This document shows positions 11,090 through 42,362 of a stretch of 64,000 nt of DNA, piece after piece. The position numbers and the translations under genes were made by a program. Source of the stretch: a virus (taxonomy: Duplodnaviria; Caudoviricetes). The notes beneath the pieces were generated by a model. It saw only the letters and a program-made list of their open reading frames with translations. It made no database searches and was not told where the DNA came from. Location: positions 1 to 64,000 of IMG/VR virus record IMGVR_UViG_2974666281_000001. One strand, written 5' to 3'. Every line of letters begins with the position of its first letter. Position 1 is the stretch's first letter.

Positions 11090-11698
11090 TTAGATAGAAA
11101 CAATCTCTAAATGATACATAACATACGCTGGAGCCAGCGGGTCATTTTGTACATCTTCGATGTTAACAATTCTCAATCGTGTTCCGATAGGAAGCATCCA
11201 TTCATCTTCGCCATTCACCATATCTAACTTATCACCCCTCTCATCATTATCTGCATAACTTTCATTGTACATAAACTCAGATTCTGGAGCAGCCAGCAAG
11301 ATGTTCATCATATGCTCTTGATAATTAAACGCTTTAACAGCATTACGTAATGAAAAGATTACTCTTGTACCATAGCAATAAGTCCCAGCAAACTGACGAG
11401 CAGTAGCAAAATCACTACTGAATGATGTAACACGATTGAGCTCGAAAGTTTCACCTACAGCAAGATCTTGGATTTGATATAGAGTTGTTTTAGAGATACC
11501 ACGATACAATTCTACAGGCACGTGTTCAGACAAATGTCTTGAAACAACTTTGGATAAGTCTTTGTGAAGGTTACTACAAGTCTTGTCGTTCATACACTGC
11601 CAAAGCAAAGATTGCTCATAGTCGCTGAACATAGAGTTAACAAGTTCTTCGTAGTAAGCTTGATTTTCTTCAGTGTATTCAACTGTTTGATACAACAT
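11090..11698 (-). CDS. Mod-family ADP-ribosyltransferase (single modA/modB-like copy)
   Basis: EQSLLWQCM, LYRG, VTSFS and GEDEW (R-S-E ART triad). Confidence 0.9.
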   Translation of the reverse strand: MLYQTVEYTEENQAYYEELVNSMFSDYEQSLLWQCMNDKTCSNLHKDLSKVVSRHLSEHVPVELYRGISKTTLYQIQDLAVGETFELNRVTSFSSDFATARQFAGTYCYGTRVIFSLRNAVKAFNYQEHMMNILLAAPESEFMYNESYADNDERGDKLDMVNGEDEWMLPIGTRLRIVNIEDVQNDPLAPAYVMYHLEIVSI

Positions 11699-18102: not shown

Positions 18103-19269
18103 TTAACCTGCAAAGTCGTCAAGTTCGGTTTCAATATCAGCCGCTGAAGCTTTCAATGGAACATCAGGTGCTGTGAATTTTTCAACCTTAGAAGAAATAA
18201 GGTCTTCAACTTCAGCGTCAACAGTCGCATTGGAATCAATTGCACCAAGCTGATAATGACGTTTAATGGCATCACGGAATGGTTCATGTTTAAACATAGG
18301 ACCCCAGAACTCAGTTGAACTAGTGTCTTTTGCTCGCCATGATTTTTCTTCACGAACCATTTCACCGGTTTCTACATCAAGAAATTCACGTGAGTACCAA
18401 CCATTTTTAGGTTTAACCACAAAACCTAATTCGAGAGCCATTTCAAGCAAACCGGAATATGGGTCAATACCACCATCAAACTTAACGTCAATAAAGAACT
18501 TAGATTTCTCTTTAACAGCACGAGATTTCTCTGCGTTCAATACAAACTGGAAGCCTTGAAGTTCGGTACCATCTTTAATCTGACGCTTACCAATAATGAA
18601 TACTGTGTCAGCAGAATACATCACACCGGTACCACCAGTCATAACAGTCTTACTGAACATTTCCATAGTTTCTATGGTATGGTTAACCGCAACACAAGGA
18701 ATGTCTTTAATACTGAAGAATGGAGTAACGATACGGAACAGAGATTTCAGCTGTTTAGCACGAGTCATATCAGCTACAGTTTTCTCGTTCAGAGCATCTT
18801 CTGTTTCTTTCTTAGAAGCCATGTTACCGATTGAGTCGATGAAGATAATAACCTTCTCACCACGCTCGATTGCTTCAAGCTGGTTTACCATATCAATTTT
18901 CAGCTGTTCAACTGACTGAATTGGTGTATGGATAACACGTTCCGGGTCAACTTTCATTGCACGCAGATAAGCTTCAGAGATACCAAATTCACTATCATAG
19001 AACAGACAAATAGCTTCTGGGTATTTGTTCATATATGCCGAAACCATCGTTAAACCCATATTAGATTTAAAGTGTTTAGACGGGCCAGCAAAGATTGTTA
19101 AGCCTGATTGCATACCACCATCAAGGGCACCAGAGATTGCGATATTCAGCATCGGAATCTTTGTACGAACTACGTCTTTATCATTGAAGAACTTTGACTT
19201 GGTCAGTTCAGCAGTCATTTTAGAGGTAGAAGCTTTAATCAGACGAGATTTCAGGTCAGCGAGTGCCAT
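18103..19269 (-). CDS. uvsX: UvsX RecA-like recombinase
   Basis: AGPSKHFKS, FYDSEFG, IDSIGN. Confidence 0.97.
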   Translation of the reverse strand: MALADLKSRLIKASTSKMTAELTKSKFFNDKDVVRTKIPMLNIAISGALDGGMQSGLTIFAGPSKHFKSNMGLTMVSAYMNKYPEAICLFYDSEFGISEAYLRAMKVDPERVIHTPIQSVEQLKIDMVNQLEAIERGEKVIIFIDSIGNMASKKETEDALNEKTVADMTRAKQLKSLFRIVTPFFSIKDIPCVAVNHTIETMEMFSKTVMTGGTGVMYSADTVFIIGKRQIKDGTELQGFQFVLNAEKSRAVKEKSKFFIDVKFDGGIDPYSGLLEMALELGFVVKPKNGWYSREFLDVETGEMVREEKSWRAKDTSSTEFWGPMFKHEPFRDAIKRHYQLGAIDSNATVDAEVEDLISSKVEKFTAPDVPLKASAADIETELDDFAG

Positions 19270-19350: not shown

Positions 19351-19572
19351 TTATTGTGAATATGTTTCACCGGTAGGATTTACTGAAGTGGATTCACATA
19401 TTTCGTAATGTTTATGACACTTCTCACAAAAGCCATGCCACCAACAATTGAATCCATCAGCGCCACATGTCCCTTCATGAACAAATCGCATGTGGTTACA
19501 ATTATAACAACGGAATTCTGTAGCCTGATAGATTTTGTAGGCCACATTACTTTTATCGTTCACAACAGACAT
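19351..19572 (-). CDS. small Cys-rich metal-binding protein
   Basis: 7 Cys including CYNC and CEKC; GAGGA SD. Confidence 0.65.
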   Translation of the reverse strand: MSVVNDKSNVAYKIYQATEFRCYNCNHMRFVHEGTCGADGFNCWWHGFCEKCHKHYEICESTSVNPTGETYSQ

Positions 19573-19591: not shown

Positions 19592-20140
19592 TTATCGAGC
19601 CCACTTAATTATGCTTGAAATAACTGCTTGATGTTCGCCAGCGTTAACACCACGGATGTTATTTCTACCGTCGTGATTCAAAATTTGATGAACTGGAAGG
19701 TCTTGATTATCAGCGAATTCTTCAAATAAAGAGATAACCTTATTGAAACCCTCTGGACTAAGAGAAATCAAATCATCTTCAAAGTCAGAAGTCATTTCAT
19801 TACGAGTCAGAATCAAAGTATAAACTTTATGGTTGTCAACCAGCCGATTGAAATCAACTTCAAACCGGTCTAGTTCTTTAAGCAACTCACCACGAATCAT
19901 ACCGTAAACCCAATTACTAATATATCCACGGTCTAGCAGATAGATTTTCTTAGGGTCAAGATATTCAAGCATTGTTTCGAAACAAGCTACTTCATTACGA
20001 CTTTTGATATCGAATCGACCATCATCAGTGCGTTTTGGGAAGTCAATGAGTTCATAACGGTCTGAGATTTCGCAGATATCACGAATCAATGATGTTTTAC
20101 CTGCGTTATCAGGTCCGTCTACATAAATTATTTTAGCCAC
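19592..20140 (-). CDS. thymidylate-kinase-like dNMP kinase (probably for modified dCMP)
   Basis: DGPDNAGKT P-loop, FP and LLDRG motifs. Confidence 0.85.
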   Translation of the reverse strand: MAKIIYVDGPDNAGKTSLIRDICEISDRYELIDFPKRTDDGRFDIKSRNEVACFETMLEYLDPKKIYLLDRGYISNWVYGMIRGELLKELDRFEVDFNRLVDNHKVYTLILTRNEMTSDFEDDLISLSPEGFNKVISLFEEFADNQDLPVHQILNHDGRNNIRGVNAGEHQAVISSIIKWAR

Positions 20141-21039
20141 AAATCACCTTCGATAATGACGTCTTCACGTTTAGGGATATTGTAAGGAGAATGAATATTG
20201 CATCTAAAGTAGATGAACTCTGCTAATCCAGGATGAAATACCTTTTCAGGATTTTCATGATACAGGATAATTGGAGTAGCCTTTAAGACACGATAATATT
20301 CTTTCTTACTCAGTTTGATAAGGTGTATTTTATCATAATTATATTCAGCAGCAACAAACGTGTCGTTCGGGTCTGTGATGTACAAGTCAATATCTAGATT
20401 CTTGCAAGTATTAACAACCTTTTTAAACTTATAACATTTATCACTGATTCTGAACGGATGGAATACACCCTTGAACTTGATTGGGTCCGTATTGCGAGAG
20501 AACGTCAGGATAACGTCAGGATTGATTACTCGCTGTGAGACTATGATCTTATCTTCATTAGCCCCATGAGCCACCAGAATGTCTTTCTGACACTCGTTCA
20601 GTACAAAAGTGCGAAGACTTTGGTTCACTGATTCAACATCTTTATCAATGAACTCATCAATATAATAACGTGGAACTTCTGGGTCTTTAGTGATATTGAA
20701 GTTGTAAATTACTTCATTTTTACCAGGATAACCTGTGATATCGGTTACAAGATGAGCACAATCAAAGTAATCCATCAATGAGTCGATAACGAACCAGTTC
20801 TCTTCCCAGAAATGTTTACGTGTTTCGTACGCGTTATCTTTATACCAGACAGGACAAAACATTACTTCAGGAAACAGTTCTCTCAACTCTGCTTCGTCAT
20901 CATTATTCTTTGGAATGCAAATGACATCACCGGGACTAGCCCGGTGTAATTGGAGTTGAAAGTTACCGTCTTTAAGAATAGCGTAATTACCAGTTTCGTA
21001 AGAACGCATTGAAAAGATAGGAACAATCAATTTAGCCAT
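20128..21039 (-). CDS. candidate DNA arabinosyltransferase
   Basis: sits at the beta-gt position of a sugar-nucleotide cluster; no similarity to T4 BGT; function inferred from context. Confidence 0.6.
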   Translation of the reverse strand: MAKLIVPIFSMRSYETGNYAILKDGNFQLQLHRASPGDVICIPKNNDDEAELRELFPEVMFCPVWYKDNAYETRKHFWEENWFVIDSLMDYFDCAHLVTDITGYPGKNEVIYNFNITKDPEVPRYYIDEFIDKDVESVNQSLRTFVLNECQKDILVAHGANEDKIIVSQRVINPDVILTFSRNTDPIKFKGVFHPFRISDKCYKFKKVVNTCKNLDIDLYITDPNDTFVAAEYNYDKIHLIKLSKKEYYRVLKATPIILYHENPEKVFHPGLAEFIYFRCNIHSPYNIPKREDVIIEGDLWLK

Positions 21040-21737
21040 TATTTTAAGAACCCTTTAACATAATCAAAGTCACGCTCAAAGACGTGGGCTGACACCATAG
21101 AATGAGTGTATGTACCTACTTTAACACCACATTCTTCAGCAATTAGGTTCATTAACTTCCATTGCAAATAGAAGTCCAGCTGCATAACAACGGCACAGTT
21201 CTGAGAACGCATATGACAATGTGTATAAAGACGACCATCACGAATGTAATAAGTCACAGAGTCAGTACATGGGTATTCTAGGGTCTCATCACTGTCAAGC
21301 AGTGCTTGGTCGCTTGATTCGAGAATCTGGAACACAACACGTCGCGAGTTAGGCTTCTCTTTAAGTTCTTTGAGAAGGGTTGGTAACTGGGCAACAATAC
21401 GAGGTCCATAAAAAGTGTTGAAGTTCGCAGGCAATGCGTCACTTTTTGGTTTTGAAATAAATTTAGCAACATTAGGATATTCCTTAAATGCTTCTACCGC
21501 GTCAGTGCCACCAGAAATCATGAACTTCCAGAATGCTTCGGCATAATCGTAATCAATACGATTGATACGTTCGTCTTGGAAGATAGCAGATTCTGGTTCG
21601 AATACTTCAATTACCGCAGAGCCAATTTCATGACAATGACCAATACGTGATTCTACAACAAATTCAGGTGACTTCAAGATGAGCTCATTCATCTCTTTAA
21701 ATGCTTCTTCAAACGTCCACGCTTTAACTGCAATCAT
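21039..21737 (-). CDS. thymidylate-synthase-fold dCMP-modifying enzyme (gp42-like, probable dCMP hydroxylase component)
   Basis: SRR, YPC catalytic Cys, MRSQN......LD, SAHVFERD. Confidence 0.85.
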   Translation of the reverse strand: MIAVKAWTFEEAFKEMNELILKSPEFVVESRIGHCHEIGSAVIEVFEPESAIFQDERINRIDYDYAEAFWKFMISGGTDAVEAFKEYPNVAKFISKPKSDALPANFNTFYGPRIVAQLPTLLKELKEKPNSRRVVFQILESSDQALLDSDETLEYPCTDSVTYYIRDGRLYTHCHMRSQNCAVVMQLDFYLQWKLMNLIAEECGVKVGTYTHSMVSAHVFERDFDYVKGFLK

Positions 21738-22078
21738 AATACCTCTTGTCGTTTTTTACTTTCATTAAAAATAAATTGATAGATTGATTTTAACTCATTT
21801 GGAACTGCAGCGAGTTTAAATGCTTCGACTTCAAGGTTCTCAATAGGAATATTATGTTTCTTTTTCAGAGAGCCAATCATATCAGTAACTTTAAATCGAC
21901 GTTCTAACAACTTATAGATTTCATAGTCGATATCTTCGACTTCAGAACGCATTGTGTCAAGAAGACGAGAAGGACTTGGCTTGACATTGAATGGGTTATA
22001 AGTTGCCGGGTCCTCGCCCGGCTGAATACGACGTGATTTGATAACTAGTTCGTTCATAGTGTGATTAATACGTCTCAT
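21734..22078 (-). CDS. AroQ-type chorismate mutase
   Basis: LDTMRSEVEDIDYEIYKLLERR...IGSLK...PIENLEVE...IFNESKKRQ matches the CM_2 pattern. Confidence 0.8.
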   Translation of the reverse strand: MRRINHTMNELVIKSRRIQPGEDPATYNPFNVKPSPSRLLDTMRSEVEDIDYEIYKLLERRFKVTDMIGSLKKKHNIPIENLEVEAFKLAAVPNELKSIYQFIFNESKKRQEVL

Positions 22079-23244
22079 TCTGGGTACCTCGTTGCGTCGT
22101 CTGCATTATCTGTGATTGATACAATCTGAATAGAATTCAGTGGCATGTCATTCTTAGATAGCTGACGTTTATAATAACGTTCGCAATAGGTACAAGTTGA
22201 ACCACATACTTCATTTGCACAATCAAAATCAGGATGTTTGAACCAACGTTTTTTCAAGAACCCATCAAGTAATGAAGTCTCGATATTAACCGTATGTTGG
22301 TAGTTAGCATCTGATTCATCGTTATAAATGGTTTCCAGTGGCTTCCAGAGCTCAAGGAGATTACCTTCAAATTTCTCTGAAGAATAAGCTTCCAGAACTT
22401 TCATGATGTATTCTGTTGAGCCTGTACGTCCTGACACTTTGAACTGAGTGATACCAATATCACGATACAGTTTTAAATCTTGTGGACGTACAAAACGTGT
22501 ACGGAGCCAGTTGAATGGGTCTGTGTCTCGGGCTTTGATACAGTGTTGCATCGGGTAACCATCCAATGACTGTGCATCTTCTGGTGTAGTGTCGGTACTA
22601 TGGAAAATATAGCAAGAGTCACGATAACTACAATGAGTGGTATAGCCTTTACCAGCATTAGAACAGAATTCATTGACCAGAATTTCAAAGATGATTCCAT
22701 TATCGTTACAGAATTTAGCAGCTTGCTTTAAGAATGAAACACTACGATTCTTATGAATACCACAGCAGACTTTCTTGATTTTGTATTGGTCGTGAAGATA
22801 CTTAATCTGTGTTACCGCATCTACGTGCAGGATAGTTGAAATTTCGAATTCAATTTCAGTATTCACTTCACGAACGATTTGCATTACAATTGGGTTTGCT
22901 ACTGTAATACGATAAACACCAATAGACCACAGATACTGAACATATTCTTGAATGGCTTTCTTTTTCCACTCGTCTAATTCACGCTTGGTGCCTGGGTTAA
23001 TACTGTTGAAGGTATAGTTGAAGCAAATACCTAATTCATTACAACGAGCGACGTATTTTTCCAGCTCTTCGTCTTTAACATCAGGAAGACGGAAATCAGG
23101 ACGCGCAGCTACAAACGCCATAGCTCGAGTAGAGCCATAGACTTCGTTGATTAATGAATCAGGGTTTTTAGCATTCAGCTCAACAATTTTATCAAGAAGA
23201 GCCAAATCAAAATTCGTTCCTACCTTAAAAGTAGATTTATGCAT
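22075..23244 (-). CDS. peptidase U32 family Fe-S hydroxylase
   Basis: IST...V, EILVNEFC..C..C..C cluster, FVRPQDL, FKVSGR. Confidence 0.85.
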   Translation of the reverse strand: MHKSTFKVGTNFDLALLDKIVELNAKNPDSLINEVYGSTRAMAFVAARPDFRLPDVKDEELEKYVARCNELGICFNYTFNSINPGTKRELDEWKKKAIQEYVQYLWSIGVYRITVANPIVMQIVREVNTEIEFEISTILHVDAVTQIKYLHDQYKIKKVCCGIHKNRSVSFLKQAAKFCNDNGIIFEILVNEFCSNAGKGYTTHCSYRDSCYIFHSTDTTPEDAQSLDGYPMQHCIKARDTDPFNWLRTRFVRPQDLKLYRDIGITQFKVSGRTGSTEYIMKVLEAYSSEKFEGNLLELWKPLETIYNDESDANYQHTVNIETSLLDGFLKKRWFKHPDFDCANEVCGSTCTYCERYYKRQLSKNDMPLNSIQIVSITDNADDATRYPE

Positions 23245-23245
23245 T

Positions 23246-23884
23246 TTATAACCTTACGTAATTGGGCCATTTTGGCGAATTAAGCCGAGTATAAAAAGCA
23301 CTTCGACTTAATCCTATAGCCTCATAAGCTAATTTCATCGTGGAATATTCCACACCATTTACTTCAACAGGTGATTTTCTCGAAGCTTTTTCGCCAGTAC
23401 AAGTCTTTCGACTTTCAGACATTTTATTTCGCGATGTGTCTGACCATACCTTTCCGATATTTGGTCCTGGCTTTCCTGTAATGGCTTTAGATAATTTAGC
23501 TCTTGTTTCAGGAGACAAACTTACACCGTATCGAGGATTATCTTTTCCGGTGAATCGTCCTTTACGGGACTTTGACATTTTATCACGAGATTCTTTGCTA
23601 TACGCAAATGCTGTATTTCCACCTAATTTCAAGTTCAATACATCAGGCCTTTTTAACCAGTCTTCATTAACCAATTTGGCTTCATAATCGTAAGCGTCTT
23701 GTTCTATGTCGAATGTGGCCAAAATCTCTTTTATGATTTTAGGGTTCTTGGACTTAATATAATCTTTAAGTTTTACTCCAGAACCCATATAATCATCTTC
23801 TATATTAGAAGTACTATGCTTACCAATATAGAATCTAACATCTTCTTCAGACGTGCACGTTATTTTGTACACGCAATGAATCAT
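23246..23884 (-). mobile_element. free-standing GIY-YIG homing endonuclease with NUMOD3 repeats
   Basis: CVYKIT..FYIGKHST..DDYMGSG; SKESRDKMS, SPETRAKLS and SDTSRNKMS repeats. Confidence 0.9.
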
Positions 23885-24246
23885 AAGTTTGGTTTGTACG
23901 ATTTCTTTGATTTGAATTCACCTTTATTCATAAGGTTTTTGAATTCGTCAGGACGCATAGCTTTGTCGTCGATAATCCAATCATACACAGGTTTATGTGT
24001 CAGCAGATTATGATACTTCAAGCCAATACGTTTCAAGTTCTCAATAAGAGAAGGAACAATTTCTGAAGTAATACGACCAGGACCTACTGACTTCATACCG
24101 CGAGCAGTATAAAGCGTAATCTCATGACCTTCATCGTACAGCTTGTTAATCATGGACACCATTACGGTGTCCGGCTTAAAGTTCACATAATCACGGTCAT
24201 TGTTCCAGAACGTAATTGTATCGTCGATGTCAAACGTTAACTTCAT
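23881..24246 (-). CDS. HAD-family sugar-phosphate phosphatase
   Basis: FDIDDT, LYTARG, KP..D.IIDDKA. Confidence 0.85.
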   Translation of the reverse strand: MKLTFDIDDTITFWNNDRDYVNFKPDTVMVSMINKLYDEGHEITLYTARGMKSVGPGRITSEIVPSLIENLKRIGLKYHNLLTHKPVYDWIIDDKAMRPDEFKNLMNKGEFKSKKSYKPNL

Positions 24247-25924
24247 TGATTCGTTCCCACTGATGAGTGATATCGCCACCTATAGGGCGATAGGAGACAC
24301 CTGTTTCTTTATCAGTCAGTACCCATTTACCAGGGTTCTTCGTGATTAACGTCGCCGTAATAGGCTCACTAATGTCCATTGAAACAGAGCCATCTTGGAG
24401 TAGACGGCCCATTTTACGTAATTGTTTAGTAAGCAGCATCATGCCATGGTAATATGCCGAAACTGCTTTCAACGGATTGTTCTTGAAGTAACCACCTAAT
24501 GCAATCCAGATAATAGCAACTGCAAGATGATGATAGTCGTTGAACAAATCACATTTCTCGTACTTATGAACCAATGGCTGAATATTAACAAAACAATGCC
24601 CTTCATCAATAATAAGACCACCCCAAGCATGATCGGAATTAAACTTATCATAACCTGAAATGGCGTAAAGGACTTTTGCTTCATCATACAACTGTGGACC
24701 AAAGATTTTAGTCTCACCAAAATAACCACGTGGATCAATGAATTTAACTACACCATCGTATTGAATCATGGTATTACTAAAGTTTGGGTCACCATGAATA
24801 ACACAATAACTACGCCCTTGGGTCTCGTGATGGTATTTAATCAAATGGGCTAATGCTTGTTTAAGCATCGGTTTCAGATGACCAAGTTTAACATGATTAA
24901 CATGGGTGATTTTACCAAACGATTCAATTAAGCCTTTAATTGAATCACAACGGTCGATTACTTTTGTGTAGAATTCTTTAGTGAAATCTAGTTCAATTTC
25001 TTCTTCAGTCGCATAAACGGAATGGCCAAAATTCAAAGCATCAAGAATTTCTTCGATTTTATCAAACTGTTTAAATGCTGGAAGCCCATACAGCCATTCA
25101 AATGCCGGAAGTCCTTTAATCCGTTCCATGATGAATGATTCACCATTGATACCTGAAATTTTAGGTATTGACTGAGATTTGACATGACGATACCATTCAA
25201 GTTCATCACGTTGAAGCTTTTTGCCTTGCTCGGTTAAAGCGAACTTTTCGACATAATCTTCTGTGATTTCTACAGCATTAAAACTACGGTTCAGTTCACG
25301 TTCTTTATGAGCTTCATGGAGTTTATCCATATCACCAAGGTCGATGATATTCATTAGCTCCGACTGTTTGAACGATTTGCCGTACAAAAAGTCTACAAAA
25401 TCTTGCCCTTGGCATTGTTCATTAATTTCTTCAAGCGTATCACCCATATAGAATTCCCAGTCTAAGAACTGATAAATTCCTACGACGTTGCCGCCAGTAC
25501 TTCCAACATTAGAAATATACTGTCCATCAAAGTTATAACGACACTGATTGCCTTTAGTGTAAATGGTATTTTGTTCCCAACACCATGAACCAAAGTCGGG
25601 AATAATGTCACACCAGTTAACGATAACGTTGTGACCTTCTAACATATGGTTCATTGTAGCTAATGCATAAGCAGAACCGTATGATTCATCTACGGTATGG
25701 ACAGTGATATTCAGGCCTTCTTGCTGAGCATAAGCACGAACCATTTCAGCGAACTTTGAATGCACGACTACAATAATTTCATCTGCACCAAGGTCTGCAT
25801 AGATGTCATGCAGATTTTTGAGAATAGTGTGTTGCTTATAGTTAACTAACACTTTAGGTATATGGTGCGTAATTGGATATAAACGAGTTGCCAACCCAGC
25901 TCCAAGAATAACTGCCTTTTTCAT
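24230..25924 (-). CDS. sugar-1-phosphate nucleotidyltransferase fused to an APH/choline-kinase-like kinase
   Basis: ILGAGLATRL.P.T..IPK at the N-terminus; IHGDPNFSN..FIDPRG in the C-terminal half. Confidence 0.9.
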   Translation of the reverse strand: MKKAVILGAGLATRLYPITHHIPKVLVNYKQHTILKNLHDIYADLGADEIIVVVHSKFAEMVRAYAQQEGLNITVHTVDESYGSAYALATMNHMLEGHNVIVNWCDIIPDFGSWCWEQNTIYTKGNQCRYNFDGQYISNVGSTGGNVVGIYQFLDWEFYMGDTLEEINEQCQGQDFVDFLYGKSFKQSELMNIIDLGDMDKLHEAHKERELNRSFNAVEITEDYVEKFALTEQGKKLQRDELEWYRHVKSQSIPKISGINGESFIMERIKGLPAFEWLYGLPAFKQFDKIEEILDALNFGHSVYATEEEIELDFTKEFYTKVIDRCDSIKGLIESFGKITHVNHVKLGHLKPMLKQALAHLIKYHHETQGRSYCVIHGDPNFSNTMIQYDGVVKFIDPRGYFGETKIFGPQLYDEAKVLYAISGYDKFNSDHAWGGLIIDEGHCFVNIQPLVHKYEKCDLFNDYHHLAVAIIWIALGGYFKNNPLKAVSAYYHGMMLLTKQLRKMGRLLQDGSVSMDISEPITATLITKNPGKWVLTDKETGVSYRPIGGDITHQWERINEVNV

Positions 25925-27202: not shown

Positions 27203-29911
27203 TTAGAAATCAAACATGTCAAACAAAGATGCTTTTTTCTCGTAATCAATCTTAGCCGCTTCTGTAAACGATGTCAAAGGTTTAACAAACGTTTTGTTGA
27301 ACAAAGCAGGATAGTCAATCCACTTCAGAACTTCAGAACGAATCTCTGGTGTGATTTCAGAACCAGACGGCCAACTAATACATGTATCACCAAACGGGTT
27401 CTGTTCACGCAATGGAAGAACCATAACCTTTTCACCTTCAGTGATAGCAGTAACGTTAGGCATACCTTTGGTTGCTCGGTTATAAGTCAGAATTCCACGA
27501 ATATGGTATGGGCATTTCGGACCTGGATAACCACCAACATCGTACTTCATGATGTTGTTTGCAGACGATACAGCAGCAATCGTTTTATAGTCTTGCTGTT
27601 TGAATTCATGTTCGAATTCTTTAAAGTATGTCTGAAGTGATTCTTCACCTTCTTGAAGCATACGTCTGATACATTCTTTCAATGCCTTCTGACATGCTTT
27701 AGGAGTAGAAGATTTCTGAGTTTCTAGACCCATGATTTTGAGTTTAGGTTCAGCATATCGGGTACCTTCCATGTCCCACACGTTCAGTGCATAACGTTTC
27801 TTCGCTGTCCAGAAACCACCAAGACCTTTAGAACCAAGTGGGGGACCAGAAATGGCTTCTCGGTCCATGAACATCAAATGTTCTCTGTTGTTCATATATT
27901 CGCACATTTCACGGAAACCTGAATCAATCGCAGGTTCTAGTTTTTCTTTACCAAATTTGTCTAAGAAATCGACAAGATGGTTTGTATCACGGAATTTATC
28001 TTCGCCTACTTTATCAATCAACTTATCTACACAAATATAAACAGAGTCTGTATCACCAGCGATAACAAACTTGTGGTCTTCTAATCCAACCACTTTGTTC
28101 ATATACTCGTTGATTTTACGTTCAATCCATTGAATAGCCATCTGACCAAACAGCGTGATTGCTGAGGCGTTTCTCAAATCATAATAACGGAACCATACGT
28201 TACCAAGTGCACCATAAAGAGAGTTGATAAGCAACTTGCGGTTAATCTGTGCTGTATTACCTGCAATACTTGCACGGTCGCATTTGTCTAAGAATTGTTT
28301 TAAAGCTTCTTTAGACATAGTTGACAAAAGAGCTTTGGTTTCATCATCAAAGTCATTACGAACATCGACATCAGGAACGCCACCAGAACCGAACGTATCA
28401 TGATGAAGAGCTTCTTTAATCAATTCCATATTACGTTGAGCACCAAGCATATAGCCTTTGTGTTCTTTACGCTGATAGAATACTTTAGTGATTTCTTCTG
28501 GGATAACACCTTGGTAAGACTTATCGTACATCCAACCATTTGGAGAACAAGAATATTCATCACTCGGACGAGGAGCAACTTTATTGATGTAATCATGAAT
28601 CGGATGAAGTTGGAACTGACCAGCCAATGTTTCAGGACTAATGTTAACCTGTCGAATGATGCTTGGGTACAGAGATGTCAAGTCACAAGACATAACGTAT
28701 TTGTAGCTATTCGGAACAGGTTCTTTAACGTAAGCACCAGGATAACTTTGTTTAACATGAGAACGGCACTGTGGGATTACTTTTTTCTTACTCTTAAGCG
28801 AGTTAAAAATAATTGCGTCCCAAGTCTTAATAGGACTAAACACAGATTGAATCTGCATTTTAGCATAATAACCCATTGACAGACTCAAGTTAATGAACTG
28901 CCGTTTCTGGTCGATTCGTTGTACACGTTCAACGTCGATAATGTTATAAGAAATATATCGTTGGTGATTTGTTTCACGAAGTTTGTTAATCGGGCCGTCA
29001 TAAGGCAGTTTACCTTCACCAAGTTCATATTCAGCGACATAGTCTAGAGAATAAGATGGTTGGTTCGTGAAACTAAATTTCTTATACAGCTCGATATAGT
29101 CCAGATGGCTGATACCGTAAATCTGAATTACTTCTCGTTCACCGTACATGTTCTGAATAATTTTAGACTTAGTACGACGATGAGGAGACAGACGGTTTGC
29201 AGTCTTTTCACCAAATACGTTTTTAATACGGTTGTAGATATAAGGAATATCAAATGATTCGGTGTTCCAACCAGTGAAAATAACTGGAGTCTTTTCAGTC
29301 CAAAGATTCAAATATTGAAGCAGAAGTTCTTCTTCATTTTCACACGGGATGTACACAATTCGGTCAAGAATTCGTTGTGGTACTGCATCGCCACCTTCAG
29401 CTTCAGATTTGCCAGCTAAAACAGGGTCCCAATGAGTAACAGAACCATATGGAGAATTCAACAGGTCGAACACATAGAAACGATCGTCAATTGAGTCATA
29501 GTGTGTAATGGCATCAATTGGATAAAGTGCCTGAGATGGGTCTGGGAACTCAGGAGCTGTTACTTCGATGTCACAGTTAGCCGCACGAATCAAACGATCG
29601 TCATAATGGATTTCATTCGGATAAGTGTCAGACAGATAGGCTAACTTAAAGTCATCCATACCCATTGCTTCAAGACCCATATCTTCCATACGACGAATCC
29701 AGTTATTTGCATCTCGCATATTAGGAAATGACTTCTTAACACAACCTTTACCATAGATATCTTCGTATTTCGAAGCTTGTCCTTGTTGACCATGCATAAA
29801 AAGATTAGGTTCGTACTTCACTTCACGAGAACGCTCTTTACCGGAAGAATCGATATAACGTTCATATAGAGTATCACCGACTTGTTCAATAGTCAGATAA
29901 AATTCTTGCAT
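27203..29911 (-). CDS. 43: family B DNA polymerase gp43 (unsplit)
   Basis: CDIEV, DLTSLYPS, KLLINSLYG, AGDTDS, C-terminal clamp motif SLFDMFDF. Confidence 0.98.
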   Translation of the reverse strand: MQEFYLTIEQVGDTLYERYIDSSGKERSREVKYEPNLFMHGQQGQASKYEDIYGKGCVKKSFPNMRDANNWIRRMEDMGLEAMGMDDFKLAYLSDTYPNEIHYDDRLIRAANCDIEVTAPEFPDPSQALYPIDAITHYDSIDDRFYVFDLLNSPYGSVTHWDPVLAGKSEAEGGDAVPQRILDRIVYIPCENEEELLLQYLNLWTEKTPVIFTGWNTESFDIPYIYNRIKNVFGEKTANRLSPHRRTKSKIIQNMYGEREVIQIYGISHLDYIELYKKFSFTNQPSYSLDYVAEYELGEGKLPYDGPINKLRETNHQRYISYNIIDVERVQRIDQKRQFINLSLSMGYYAKMQIQSVFSPIKTWDAIIFNSLKSKKKVIPQCRSHVKQSYPGAYVKEPVPNSYKYVMSCDLTSLYPSIIRQVNISPETLAGQFQLHPIHDYINKVAPRPSDEYSCSPNGWMYDKSYQGVIPEEITKVFYQRKEHKGYMLGAQRNMELIKEALHHDTFGSGGVPDVDVRNDFDDETKALLSTMSKEALKQFLDKCDRASIAGNTAQINRKLLINSLYGALGNVWFRYYDLRNASAITLFGQMAIQWIERKINEYMNKVVGLEDHKFVIAGDTDSVYICVDKLIDKVGEDKFRDTNHLVDFLDKFGKEKLEPAIDSGFREMCEYMNNREHLMFMDREAISGPPLGSKGLGGFWTAKKRYALNVWDMEGTRYAEPKLKIMGLETQKSSTPKACQKALKECIRRMLQEGEESLQTYFKEFEHEFKQQDYKTIAAVSSANNIMKYDVGGYPGPKCPYHIRGILTYNRATKGMPNVTAITEGEKVMVLPLREQNPFGDTCISWPSGSEITPEIRSEVLKWIDYPALFNKTFVKPLTSFTEAAKIDYEKKASLFDMFDF

Positions 29912-40078: not shown

Positions 40079-40552
40079 TTAAATTTCCTCAGTCCAGTTA
40101 CCTTTGTGGTTTACCCACAAACGTTGATTATCACTACCACGCCAAGCCTTTTGAGTTGACAGTGATTGTTCGTATTTTCCGTCAATAATAACATCTACAT
40201 TTTGAAGCAATTCAAGATGTTTTATGTCTTCAAATTTATAGCCAGTCCACATCCAAACATCTTTATGAGGATGACTGGTATGTAAGCATTTTAGAAGTGA
40301 TTCTATAGTCTCTCTATTATCTGGATAGAGTGGGTCTCCACCGGTAAGAGTGATTCCTTGAATATAATCTTTGCTTAAAAGCTCTCTGATTTCTTCAATA
40401 GTTTCTCCGGTGAACTCTGTCCCGTTGCGTGGATTCCATGTACTTTTATTATAACATCCTTCGCATTTATGCGAACATCCAGTAACGAAAAGAACGACCC
40501 TGCAACCAGGACCATTTATAAAATCGCAAGGATAGATTCTATCGTAGTTCAT
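40079..40552 (-). CDS. nrdG: anaerobic RNR activase NrdG
   Basis: CSHKCEGC radical SAM motif, GGDPL, RGSDNQ. Confidence 0.96.
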   Translation of the reverse strand: MNYDRIYPCDFINGPGCRVVLFVTGCSHKCEGCYNKSTWNPRNGTEFTGETIEEIRELLSKDYIQGITLTGGDPLYPDNRETIESLLKCLHTSHPHKDVWMWTGYKFEDIKHLELLQNVDVIIDGKYEQSLSTQKAWRGSDNQRLWVNHKGNWTEEI

Positions 40553-42362
40553 GTTTTGTACGGTTCACCATTTCTTTGTTCTTACCTACGTTGAAGCCTC
40601 GAACTGATGGATTGCCTAGATAACCACATGTGCGTCTGACAGTATTCATTTTAGAAGGGTCTTTCTCCCCACAGTATCGACAGACGAATCCTTCTTCAGT
40701 GGGTTTCATCTCGTCATGACTACCGCATGTGAAGCATTTATCAACAGGCATATTGACACCAAAATAATCTAGCTTCTCAATAGCATAATCCCAAACAGCT
40801 TCTAAGCCCTTAAGATTATCTTTCATATTAGGCAGTTCGACATAACTAATATGACCACCTTTAGCAATATAATGATATTTTGCTTCACGGTCAATCTTCT
40901 CGAAAGGAGAAATCTTTTCTTCTACTGAAACGTGGAAACTATTAGTGTACCATCCTTTGTCAGTGACGCCTGGTACGAGCCCATGAATTTTTGTATCAAT
41001 CTTACAGAATCGATAACAAAGATTCTCTGCGGGTGTAGAATAAAGGCTAAATGCGTATCCTGTTTCTTTAGACCAAAGATTCAGGTAGTCATTTATTACA
41101 TCAAGAGTTGTTTTACCAAAGCCTTCATAAGTCAAAAGTTCTAGTTCATGAATACCGATATACCCTAATGAAATAGATGATCGGCCATTTTTAAAGATAT
41201 CAATGATTTTATCAGTAGGTTTTAAACGAACACCAAAAGCGCCTTCTTGATATAAGATTGGAGCTACTGATGCGGTGGTTTCTTCTAATGATTTAATACG
41301 CGAAATCAAAGCATCATGACAGATTTTAAGCATATCATCTAAACGATACATGAATTTAACTGAATCCATATGCCCTTCTTCTTTGATTACATCAAGAGCA
41401 ATACGTGGTAAATTCAACGTTACTACACCTAGATTATTACGCCCATCAAGGATTTCTTTGCCTTCTTCTTTATGGACTGAAAGAAAACTGCGACAACCCA
41501 TGGGAGAAACTGGAACAGATGAACCAGTGATTTTCTTATTATTCTTTACTGAGATGATGTCTGGGTACATACGTTTTGCACTACATTCTAGCGCAAGTTG
41601 CTTAATTTCATAGTTAGGGTCTTCAGGCTTAAGATTAACCCCATCTTCAATAAACATAACAAGTTTAGGGAAAACTGGAGTAATTCCGTCTCGTCCTAAT
41701 CCACGGATTCTATTTTTAAGAATAGCTTTTTGGATTAACACTTCAGGCCAAGATGTACCTGTACCAAATGTAACTGTAACAAAAGGAGTCTGACCATTTG
41801 AACTAAACAATGTGTTTACTTCATATTCGTATGCTTGAAAAGCATCGAACACATCTTTTTCGGTTTTATCGAATGCATATGGAACACATCCATAGATGTC
41901 GTATTTACGAGCATCACTGAGGTGTTTTTTATACGTGGCTTCGACATAAGGAGCAAGAACTTTATCTACATTAGCGAAAGTAGTCCCACCATATTGATGA
42001 GATGCAACTTGAGCTGTAATTTGAGCCATAATAGCAGTTGCTACACCAATTGATTTAGGTTTTTCAATTTGGGCATTACCAAGTTTGAATCCATTCTCTA
42101 ACATGCCTTTTAAATCAACAAGACAACAGTTAGTAAACGGAAGAGCAGGGCTATAATCCATATCATGAAAATGAATTAAGCCCTGCTCATGTGCAGATAA
42201 AACGTTTTTAGGCAGAACACTTTTAGCAATATGCTTTGAAGCAATACCAGCCATTAAATCTCGTTGCGTAGGAAAAACGTTGCCGTCTTTATTCGCATTT
42301 TCATTAAGAAGGTCTTTATTAGACTTATTAATGACCGAGAGAATATCTTTTTCAATTGTCAT
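40539..42362 (-). CDS. nrdD: anaerobic ribonucleotide reductase NrdD (intronless)
   Basis: ENANKD, TNCC, MGCRS, TPAE, RRTCGYL. Confidence 0.97.
   Translation of the reverse strand: MTIEKDILSVINKSNKDLLNENANKDGNVFPTQRDLMAGIASKHIAKSVLPKNVLSAHEQGLIHFHDMDYSPALPFTNCCLVDLKGMLENGFKLGNAQIEKPKSIGVATAIMAQITAQVASHQYGGTTFANVDKVLAPYVEATYKKHLSDARKYDIYGCVPYAFDKTEKDVFDAFQAYEYEVNTLFSSNGQTPFVTVTFGTGTSWPEVLIQKAILKNRIRGLGRDGITPVFPKLVMFIEDGVNLKPEDPNYEIKQLALECSAKRMYPDIISVKNNKKITGSSVPVSPMGCRSFLSVHKEEGKEILDGRNNLGVVTLNLPRIALDVIKEEGHMDSVKFMYRLDDMLKICHDALISRIKSLEETTASVAPILYQEGAFGVRLKPTDKIIDIFKNGRSSISLGYIGIHELELLTYEGFGKTTLDVINDYLNLWSKETGYAFSLYSTPAENLCYRFCKIDTKIHGLVPGVTDKGWYTNSFHVSVEEKISPFEKIDREAKYHYIAKGGHISYVELPNMKDNLKGLEAVWDYAIEKLDYFGVNMPVDKCFTCGSHDEMKPTEEGFVCRYCGEKDPSKMNTVRRTCGYLGNPSVRGFNVGKNKEMVNRTKHELR

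Follow-up and report, generated by a model that had tools for sequence, protein, structure and literature searches.

Phage arabinosyl-5-hydroxycytosine clusters and a proposed U32 hydroxylase

The DNA of phage RB69 and of Acinetobacter phage DLP3 contains 5-hydroxycytosine (5hoC), which is mono- to tri-arabinosylated (Lee et al. 2026, PMC13326640). A thymidylate synthase (TS) homolog, RB69 gp48 or DLP3 gp80, yields on its own 5-hydroxydeoxycytidine (5hodC) in Escherichia coli; this 5-hydroxydeoxycytidine monophosphate (5hodCMP) synthase binds flavin, its oxygen was traced to O2 by 18O2 labelling, and UDP-arabinose requires just an isomerase and the AfhE-like and AfhF-like enzymes (PMC13326640). 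For a flavin-bound crystal structure and for reconstitution in vitro, PMC13326640 cites He et al. 2026. Here we describe a cluster of this type in a 64,000-nucleotide stretch of DNA from a virus of the Caudoviricetes (positions 1 to 64,000 of IMG/VR record IMGVR_UViG_2974666281_000001, hereafter the window), where genes for a U32-family protein and for a chorismate mutase (CM) are joined to that of the TS-fold protein. At roughly even odds, we propose that the U32 and CM genes form a cassette providing a second, O2-independent and prephenate-fed route to a 5-hydroxypyrimidine nucleotide, parallel to the flavin/O2 enzyme.

Prephenate-dependent, O2-independent hydroxylation has been described in the U32 family (PMC5727448, PMC6599085, PMC10990095). 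RlhA (YdcP), the E. coli 23S rRNA C2501 5-hydroxycytidine synthase, belongs to the same Pfam family as the phage U32 protein and has the chemistry that we propose for the latter, namely cytosine C5 hydroxylation with prephenate and an Fe-S cluster and without O2. The local motif C..CYIxHA aligns between the two proteins, but they are only ~21% identical and differ in length (653 vs 389 aa) and in Cys spacing, the phage protein having an extra C-terminal CX4CX3CX2C and lacking the C-terminal domains of RlhA. In addition, RlhA acts on rRNA, whereas the substrate of the phage protein is presumed to be a free deoxynucleotide. In the TrhP/TrhO (tRNA) and UbiUV/UbiIHF (ubiquinone) pairs the same product is reached both by a U32 route without O2 and by a second route that needs O2, as we likewise propose here, and in UbiI/H/F the O2-dependent route is a flavoenzyme, as in the phage. 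TrhP and UbiUV receive prephenate from chorismate mutase, and the phage brings its own CM plus a 3-deoxy-D-arabino-heptulosonate 7-phosphate (DAHP) synthase. In contrast to these pairs, the duality in the phage is deduced from gene content only, and its U32 protein is apparently a single chain, unlike the UbiU-UbiV heterodimer. The phage's pair of class I and class III ribonucleotide reductases (RNRs) presents the same aerobic/anaerobic duality.

The source of the window is a Winklervirus-type T4-like phage, and the closest DNA sequences are those of Erwinia phage Gravdalen (97.7% identity), Serratia phage LC53 (94.6%) and Erwinia phage Virsaitis27 (Winklervirus, 93%). The DNA of LC53 carries arabinosyl-5-hydroxycytosine. 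When set beside the arabinosyl-5hoC clusters of RB69, HY126, DLP3, LC53 and Bas46/47, the window has the whole cluster, in the shared order isomerase, AfhE-like enzyme, AfhF-like enzyme, 5hodCMP synthase, arabinosyltransferase 1 and kinase; the DLP3 cluster differs in having neither U32 nor CM. The genes at the centre of this work are the following:

22075-23244, minus strand: U32-family protein, 389 aa (Pfam PF01136; phrog_5757, E 5e-262)
21734-22078, minus strand: AroQ-type chorismate mutase, 114 aa (Pfam CM_2; PDB 1YBZ, E 3e-7)
21039-21737, minus strand: TS-fold protein, 5hodCMP synthase ortholog, 232 aa (Pfam Thymidylat_synt; PDB 9IQU/9IQC)
20128-21039, minus strand: homolog of the first DNA arabinosyltransferase (RB69 gp46:47, DLP3 gp79), 303 aa (phrog_3891, E 2e-149; synteny with DLP3 gp79 and JS98 orf38)
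19592-20140, minus strand: thymidylate-kinase-like (Tmk-like) nucleotide kinase (RB69 gp45, DLP3 gp78), 182 aa (phrog_761, E 1e-42; synteny)

In GenBank entries of relatives the name 'putative chorismate mutase' is attached to the small open reading frame (ORF) and 'peptidase' to the large one. At 22075-22078 and again at 21734-21737 the plus strand has 'tcat', which is ATGA on the coding strand, a stop/start overlap at both junctions, so the linkage of the first three genes given in an earlier reading of this DNA (the preliminary description) can be read directly from the sequence. The TS-fold and arabinosyltransferase genes overlap by TAATG (21037-21041), and those of the arabinosyltransferase homolog and the Tmk-like kinase share 13 nt. 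With four overlapping junctions, the five genes (U32, CM, TS-fold, arabinosyltransferase and kinase) are therefore translationally coupled.

The TS-fold protein and the O2-dependent route

The TS-fold protein matches the Pfam family Thymidylat_synt above its curated cut-off (E 4e-15) and PDB 9IQU/9IQC (E 4e-124 over 228 residues, 4-231), and is 72% identical to DLP3 gp80. It has the hydroxylase signature, with LEYPC at 153-157 (L143E, C146) and RSQNCAVVMQLD at 177-188 (RSQN...D; D169N, N177D), and the latter segment is also found in 9IQU. Both MAFFT and pairwise alignment leave the register of this segment against ThyA ambiguous by two residues, and the assignment leans on the published signature and on the identity with 9IQU. 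Judged by these sequence features, the protein is orthologous to RB69 gp48 and the HY126 enzyme and is a flavin/O2-dependent dCMP 5-hydroxylase, or 5hodCMP synthase. The published synthase acts alone, and the TS-fold protein is therefore no helper of U32; the preliminary description had cast it as the activator of dCMP for the U32 enzyme, a role that does not agree with the oxygen of its ortholog coming from O2.

That description had U32, CM and the TS-fold protein working as one machine, in which the TS-fold Cys would attack C6 of dCMP and U32 would deliver the oxygen of prephenate. The translational coupling of the three genes and the nucleophilic Cys retained in the TS-fold enzyme are in line with such an arrangement, but TS-fold orthologs yield 5hodC alone, with flavin and with 18O from O2 (PMC13326640), the TS enzyme occurs without U32 in DLP3 and coliphage JS98, and some complete phage genomes carry a U32 relative but lack any TS-fold gene, all of which makes a joint machine very improbable. 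Two parallel routes, an established O2-dependent one and a putative O2-independent one, are the better reading.

U32 and CM as an accessory cassette

DLP3 and JS98 have the same gene order as the window, with the TS gene directly after the phosphatase or kinase gene, and in their whole genomes we found no U32, no CM and no DAHP synthase. Despite this absence of U32 and CM, DLP3 makes tri-arabinosyl-5hoC. Since the published pathway is complete and the DNA of DLP3 is modified without the cassette, U32 and CM are accessory and lie outside the core pathway. We also considered U32 as a step in UDP-arabinose synthesis and rejected it, as DLP3 achieves full modification without this protein.

The paper on the pathway makes no mention of U32, CM, prephenate, chorismate or anaerobiosis (PMC13326640). 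Searches of the literature for any connection of phage DNA modification with U32, prephenate or chorismate mutase gave nothing relevant, with the papers of He et al. (2026) and Mahler et al. (2025) lying beyond their reach.

The U32 protein

The match of this protein to Peptidase_U32 (PF01136; E 1.4e-11, 44.5 bits vs a cut-off of 22.4) agrees with its earlier placement in the U32 family. An AF2 model (pLDDT 91.7) has a TIM barrel, for which Foldseek gives as best PDB match the uncharacterised U32 protein 5D88 (E 7e-7), the others being generic TIM barrels, including MTHFR; a PDB search with the sequence gave no match. Ten Cys and one His (C160, C179, C194, C205, C211, H215, C235, C342, C347, C351 and C354) are invariant among 44 homologs down to 46% identity. 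The canonical Fe-S motif of the family consists of four Cys, CX6CX15CX3/4C, which hold a 4Fe-4S cluster. In the hhalign alignment with RlhA (80% probability) C205 and C211 fall opposite the first two of its Fe-S cysteines, and C194, C205, C211 and C235 (plus H215) occupy the region equivalent to the family Fe-S cysteines, while C342, C347, C351 and C354 form the additional invariant motif at the C-terminus. The protein belongs to none of the curated NCBIfam subfamilies (the sole match is UbiU, with 17 bits vs a cut-off of 440), and it is part of a separate clade found mainly in phages and phage-like contigs (461 clusters at E<=1e-30). Overall, the product of 22075-23244 can be considered a candidate prephenate-dependent, O2-independent pyrimidine C5 hydroxylase with a putative Fe-S cluster.

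Among longer U32 homologs we found no informative fusions, only an intein and DUF2621. The intein lies in a 699-aa homolog (P0185), just after profile position ~161 and beside the invariant C160. Inteins usually occupy functionally critical sites.

Every characterised U32 protein that acts on nucleic acid targets RNA, and T4-like phages encode tRNAs. The phage protein could thus be a counterpart of RlhA or TrhP with rRNA or tRNA, of the host or of the phage, as the substrate of its hydroxylation, and its location in the cluster would then be incidental. However, the C-terminal domains of RlhA and TrhP are absent from it, its gene is operonic with DNA arabinosylation genes in several unrelated phage types, and it is missing from related phages that lack no translation function, so that we regard an RNA substrate as highly unlikely.

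Chorismate mutase and the probable supply of prephenate

The small ORF had been assigned by eye to the chorismate mutase family, and its match to CM_2 (PF01817) bears this out (E 1.7e-11, 44.6 bits vs a cut-off of 27, with residues 44-112 covering profile positions 2-80 of 80). The protein is formed by a lineage-specific N-terminal extension of ~39 aa and a CM core of ~75 aa. It shares the CM_2 domain and six active-site equivalents with chorismate mutases of the PDB 1ECM class and 1YBZ, namely E. coli PheA/TyrA and archaeal AroQ. In a MAFFT alignment with the CM domains of PheA/TyrA, R44, R61, K72, E85, S107 and Q111 correspond to R11, R28, K39, E52, S84 and Q88, the same residues as listed in the preliminary description, which had also noted Val in place of R51. 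It differs from PheA/TyrA in this position (R51V), in D48N and in the N-terminal extension, which comprises 39 residues. These six of the eight E. coli active-site residues are invariant in 12 orthologs from T4-like phages (33-87% identity), in which the D48 equivalent is always N and that of R51 is V, I or L. Such invariance of ligand residues among orthologs this divergent argues for a working ligand site, as far as can be judged from sequence. The protein scores below all curated NCBIfam equivalog cut-offs; by profile and residue conservation, the 114-aa ORF is a genuine member of the AroQ chorismate mutase family. It has no fused dehydratase or dehydrogenase, and thus the prephenate formed would not be consumed. 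The conserved residues of CM and the conserved cysteines of U32 fit with both being active proteins.

The association of U32 with prephenate supply is found repeatedly and in unrelated lineages. The T4-like phages have a monofunctional CM gene joined to U32 by an ATGA overlap, and in several divergent loci (defined below) a DAHP synthase-CM fusion, a DAHP-synthase-like gene or a 151-aa CM is found beside U32. In one type of phage-like metagenome contig (L009 and L010, 7068-17107) a DAHP synthase-CM fusion and U32 are followed by a near-complete shikimate pathway, with 3-dehydroquinate (DHQ) synthase, shikimate kinase, DHQase-EPSPS, chorismate synthase and shikimate dehydrogenase. The genome from which the window comes has a DAHP synthase of AroF/G type (338 aa, 267 bits; G000 134307-135194, minus strand; L064 1465-2481), in an operon formed by polynucleotide kinase, DUF7320, DAHP synthase, a 113-aa ORF and deoxycytidine monophosphate (dCMP) deaminase. 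At the RB69-like coliphage locus L022 (phiE142), a 79-aa ORF (11155-11394, plus strand) is ATGA-coupled to U32 and has no Pfam match.

In a collection of 50,697 phage isolate records, U32 is present in 216, for which the ten commonest host names are all Enterobacterales; a homolog is also present in Shewanella phage Thanatos. DAHP synthase is found in 207 records with nearly the same host-name profile, and among phage isolates it is almost confined to U32 carriers. The TS hydroxylase homolog is more widespread (364 records), and among its carriers are phages of the aerobes Acinetobacter (57), Rhizobium (16) and Agrobacterium (5).

These data also bear on the view that CM and DAHP synthase belong among the usual auxiliary metabolic genes, serving aromatic amino acid synthesis or chorismate diversion, with U32 an unrelated protein, for example a protease, and no hydroxylation taking place. 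The U32 family was originally named as a peptidase family, and CM is absent from most coliphage members, both of which this explanation would accommodate. Against it, CM or DAHP synthase genes adjoin or overlap U32 in independent lineages and with differing CM architectures, the near restriction of DAHP synthase to U32 carriers would be left without a reason, and the catalytic and Cys residues are strongly conserved; we therefore give it little weight. The scheme of the preliminary description thus stands with regard to CM, the U32 fold and the link with prephenate, and falls with regard to the partner role of the TS-fold protein.

U32 loci in other phage lineages

A profile scan of IMG/VR retrieved 49 U32 loci, 14 of them T4-like and 35 divergent (35-53% U32 identity), in which the ORFs called within 10 kb of U32 were searched by jackhmmer and by single-pass phmmer. 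In the T4-like loci the TS, transferase, kinase, phosphatase and AfhE-like genes are always present (14/14), and CM is found in 12/14. No hydroxylase-type TS was detected within 10 kb of U32 in any of the 35 divergent loci. A homolog of the first arabinosyltransferase is present in ~23 of these (single-pass phmmer E down to 1e-20), and in six it overlaps U32 or is adjacent to it, at a distance of up to ~16 nt; a kinase is found in ~25/35 and an AfhE-like enzyme in 15/35 (E 1e-9 to 1e-42). Twelve of the divergent-U32 virus records reach at least 90% completeness; in whole-record searches a TS-fold gene is absent in 11 of these, and the twelfth has a canonical ThyA with L143, D169 and N177. One 29-kb viral fragment that is not T4-like (G035; L065 1126-1977, plus strand, and L057) has both U32 and a TS with the hydroxylase signature (CEYPC, RSNN...D), the latter lying outside the 10-kb zone around U32, ~10 kb farther along the record; this would be a second lineage with both routes.

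The RNRs follow a similar pattern. NrdD is present in 8 of 19 divergent-U32 records and a class I/II large subunit in none, whereas the genome of the window has both class I and class III enzymes, the class I large subunit being located outside the window (genome position 141826-143352). In the U32 tree the T4-like, TS-bearing clade is nested inside TS-less lineages. More distant U32 members have a DAHP synthase gene overlapping U32, or have U32 inside a replication/modification module. In two large phage-like contigs (L006 and L067) U32 is found among Pol III alpha, UDG, radical SAM/SPASM, DNA methyltransferase and GT4 glycosyltransferase genes. One TS-less jumbo phage matched wastewater metagenomes of several studies, which is compatible with a gut or sewer origin but is not proof of anoxia.

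The U32 protein might instead be a prephenate-dependent hydroxylase or oxidoreductase of the same pathway with another substrate; candidates are nucleotides other than dCMP (dUMP, for instance), cytosine already incorporated into DNA, and sugar or flavin intermediates. A dCMP deaminase gene overlaps or abuts U32 in two divergent lineages (L006, where the genes overlap, and L053), RlhA and TrhP act on polymers, a 'sugar or heterocycle reductase' was suggested by Lee et al. (PMC13326640), and the MTHFR barrels among the Foldseek matches point in a similar direction. On the other hand, U32 is accompanied by a dedicated nucleotide kinase, in keeping with a free nucleotide as its product, the sugar chain of DLP3 is complete without U32, and the TS-less phages need a source of the acceptor hydroxyl for the adjacent transferase homolog. 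We regard another substrate as unlikely, though less so than the explanations discussed above.

Proposed O2-independent route

The O2-independent U32 hydroxylase, acting on C5 of a pyrimidine deoxynucleotide, is favoured as the simplest explanation because the cassette is accessory, because U32 adjoins the transferase homolog in loci with no other hydroxylase, because the RNRs of the divergent records are of the anaerobic class only, and because the link with prephenate recurs. From the gene identities, residue conservation and co-occurrence observed here, we infer the hydroxylase activity, its substrate and its dependence on prephenate. CM, together with the DAHP synthase that the phage encodes in another part of its genome, would drive host shikimate flux to prephenate, and the U32 Fe-S enzyme would hydroxylate C5 of dCMP with prephenate as the oxygen donor, as proposed for RlhA, TrhP and UbiU/V. 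The hydroxylated product would then be handled by the nucleotide kinase, the polymerase and the arabinosyltransferases that both routes share. Where the host is a facultative anaerobe, U32 may act as a backup to the flavin/O2 enzyme, and in many phages of anaerobes it may be the sole hydroxylase. In its most specific form, to which we give slightly less than an even chance, the proposal is that these phages encode the first U32 protein acting on a free nucleotide, an O2-independent, prephenate-fuelled dCMP C5-hydroxylase, and that the shikimate pathway of the host is reprogrammed, through DAHP synthase and chorismate mutase and in some cases a whole pathway of phage genes, to provide oxygen for a DNA base.

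Several observations weigh against an O2-independent hydroxylase. At the level of the proteins, in vitro hydroxylation by any U32 protein has not yet been demonstrated, and RB69 gp50 (U32) is labelled 'sugar or heterocycle reductase', in a table only (PMC13326640). Judged from the alignment, the phage protein does not keep the canonical CX6CX15CX3/4C spacing, its form being ~C-X10-C-X5-C-X23-C, and CM has N81 at D48 and V84 at R51. At the level of distribution, CM is detectable in only 48 of the ~216 U32-bearing isolates, and in the phiE142 locus an unrelated 79-aa ORF occupies the CM slot. About 40 JS98-type Escherichia phages, with facultative anaerobes as hosts, have no U32. A ThyX-like gene is present, far from the cluster, in 7 of the 12 near-complete divergent-U32 records, and the pattern of aerobic and anaerobic hosts is confounded by phage phylogeny. 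Thus, we hold the probability of the parallel O2-independent route at about 0.5, because no U32 protein has been reconstituted, the Cys motif is atypical, CM is often absent and host and phylogeny are confounded.

Other genes of the window

The remaining genes of the cluster and its surroundings are the following:

23246-23884, minus strand: seg-like GIY-YIG/NUMOD3 homing endonuclease (NUMOD3 E 3e-15; phrog_314)
23881-24279, minus strand: HAD phosphatase (AfhF, RB69 gp51 type), UDP-arabinose synthesis (phrog_1238, E 4e-41; role from PMC13326640)
24230-25924, minus strand: bifunctional sugar kinase and nucleotidyltransferase (AfhE, RB69 gp52:53 type) (NTP_transferase E 7e-11, kinase-like C-terminus, phrog_4098; role from PMC13326640)
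26103-26753, minus strand: arabinose-5-phosphate isomerase with a SIS domain (Pfam SIS, E 3e-10; annotated in Virsaitis27 as D-arabinose 5-phosphate isomerase)
40551-42302, minus strand: anaerobic class III ribonucleotide reductase NrdD (PF13597, E 1e-167)
18103-19269: uvsX, downstream of the cluster
27203-29911: DNA polymerase, upstream of the cluster
19351-19572, minus strand: Cys-rich 73-aa ORF flanked by uvsX and the Tmk-like kinase gene, possibly encoding a zinc ribbon, with no significant family match

With uvsX downstream and DNA polymerase upstream, the cluster occupies the T4 gene 42/beta-gt slot, where the preliminary description had placed it. The presence of nrdD, also stated there, means that the phage is equipped for anoxic replication. 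The seg-like endonuclease gene sits between those of the HAD phosphatase and U32 and is absent in relatives such as EcS1 (L012); it is an insertion in the cluster and is outside the pathway. Promoter and terminator scans gave nothing better than shuffled sequence.

Significance for phage DNA modification

The U32 hydroxylases RlhA, TrhP and UbiUV are still without an in vitro assay, and their substrates are ribosomes, tRNAs and very hydrophobic quinone precursors. If the proposed route is true, dCMP would be a small soluble substrate for settling the mechanism in which prephenate is the oxygen donor. In a well-studied cluster, two conserved but so far unassigned genes would also acquire a function, and there would be a rationale for the long-puzzling DAHP synthase of RB69-like phages. 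Moreover, the route would account for the replication of phages with 5-hydroxycytosine DNA in guts and sediments devoid of O2, in which the O2-dependent enzyme fails, and would point to a large, unexplored set of hydroxylated, glycosylated DNAs in phages of anaerobes.

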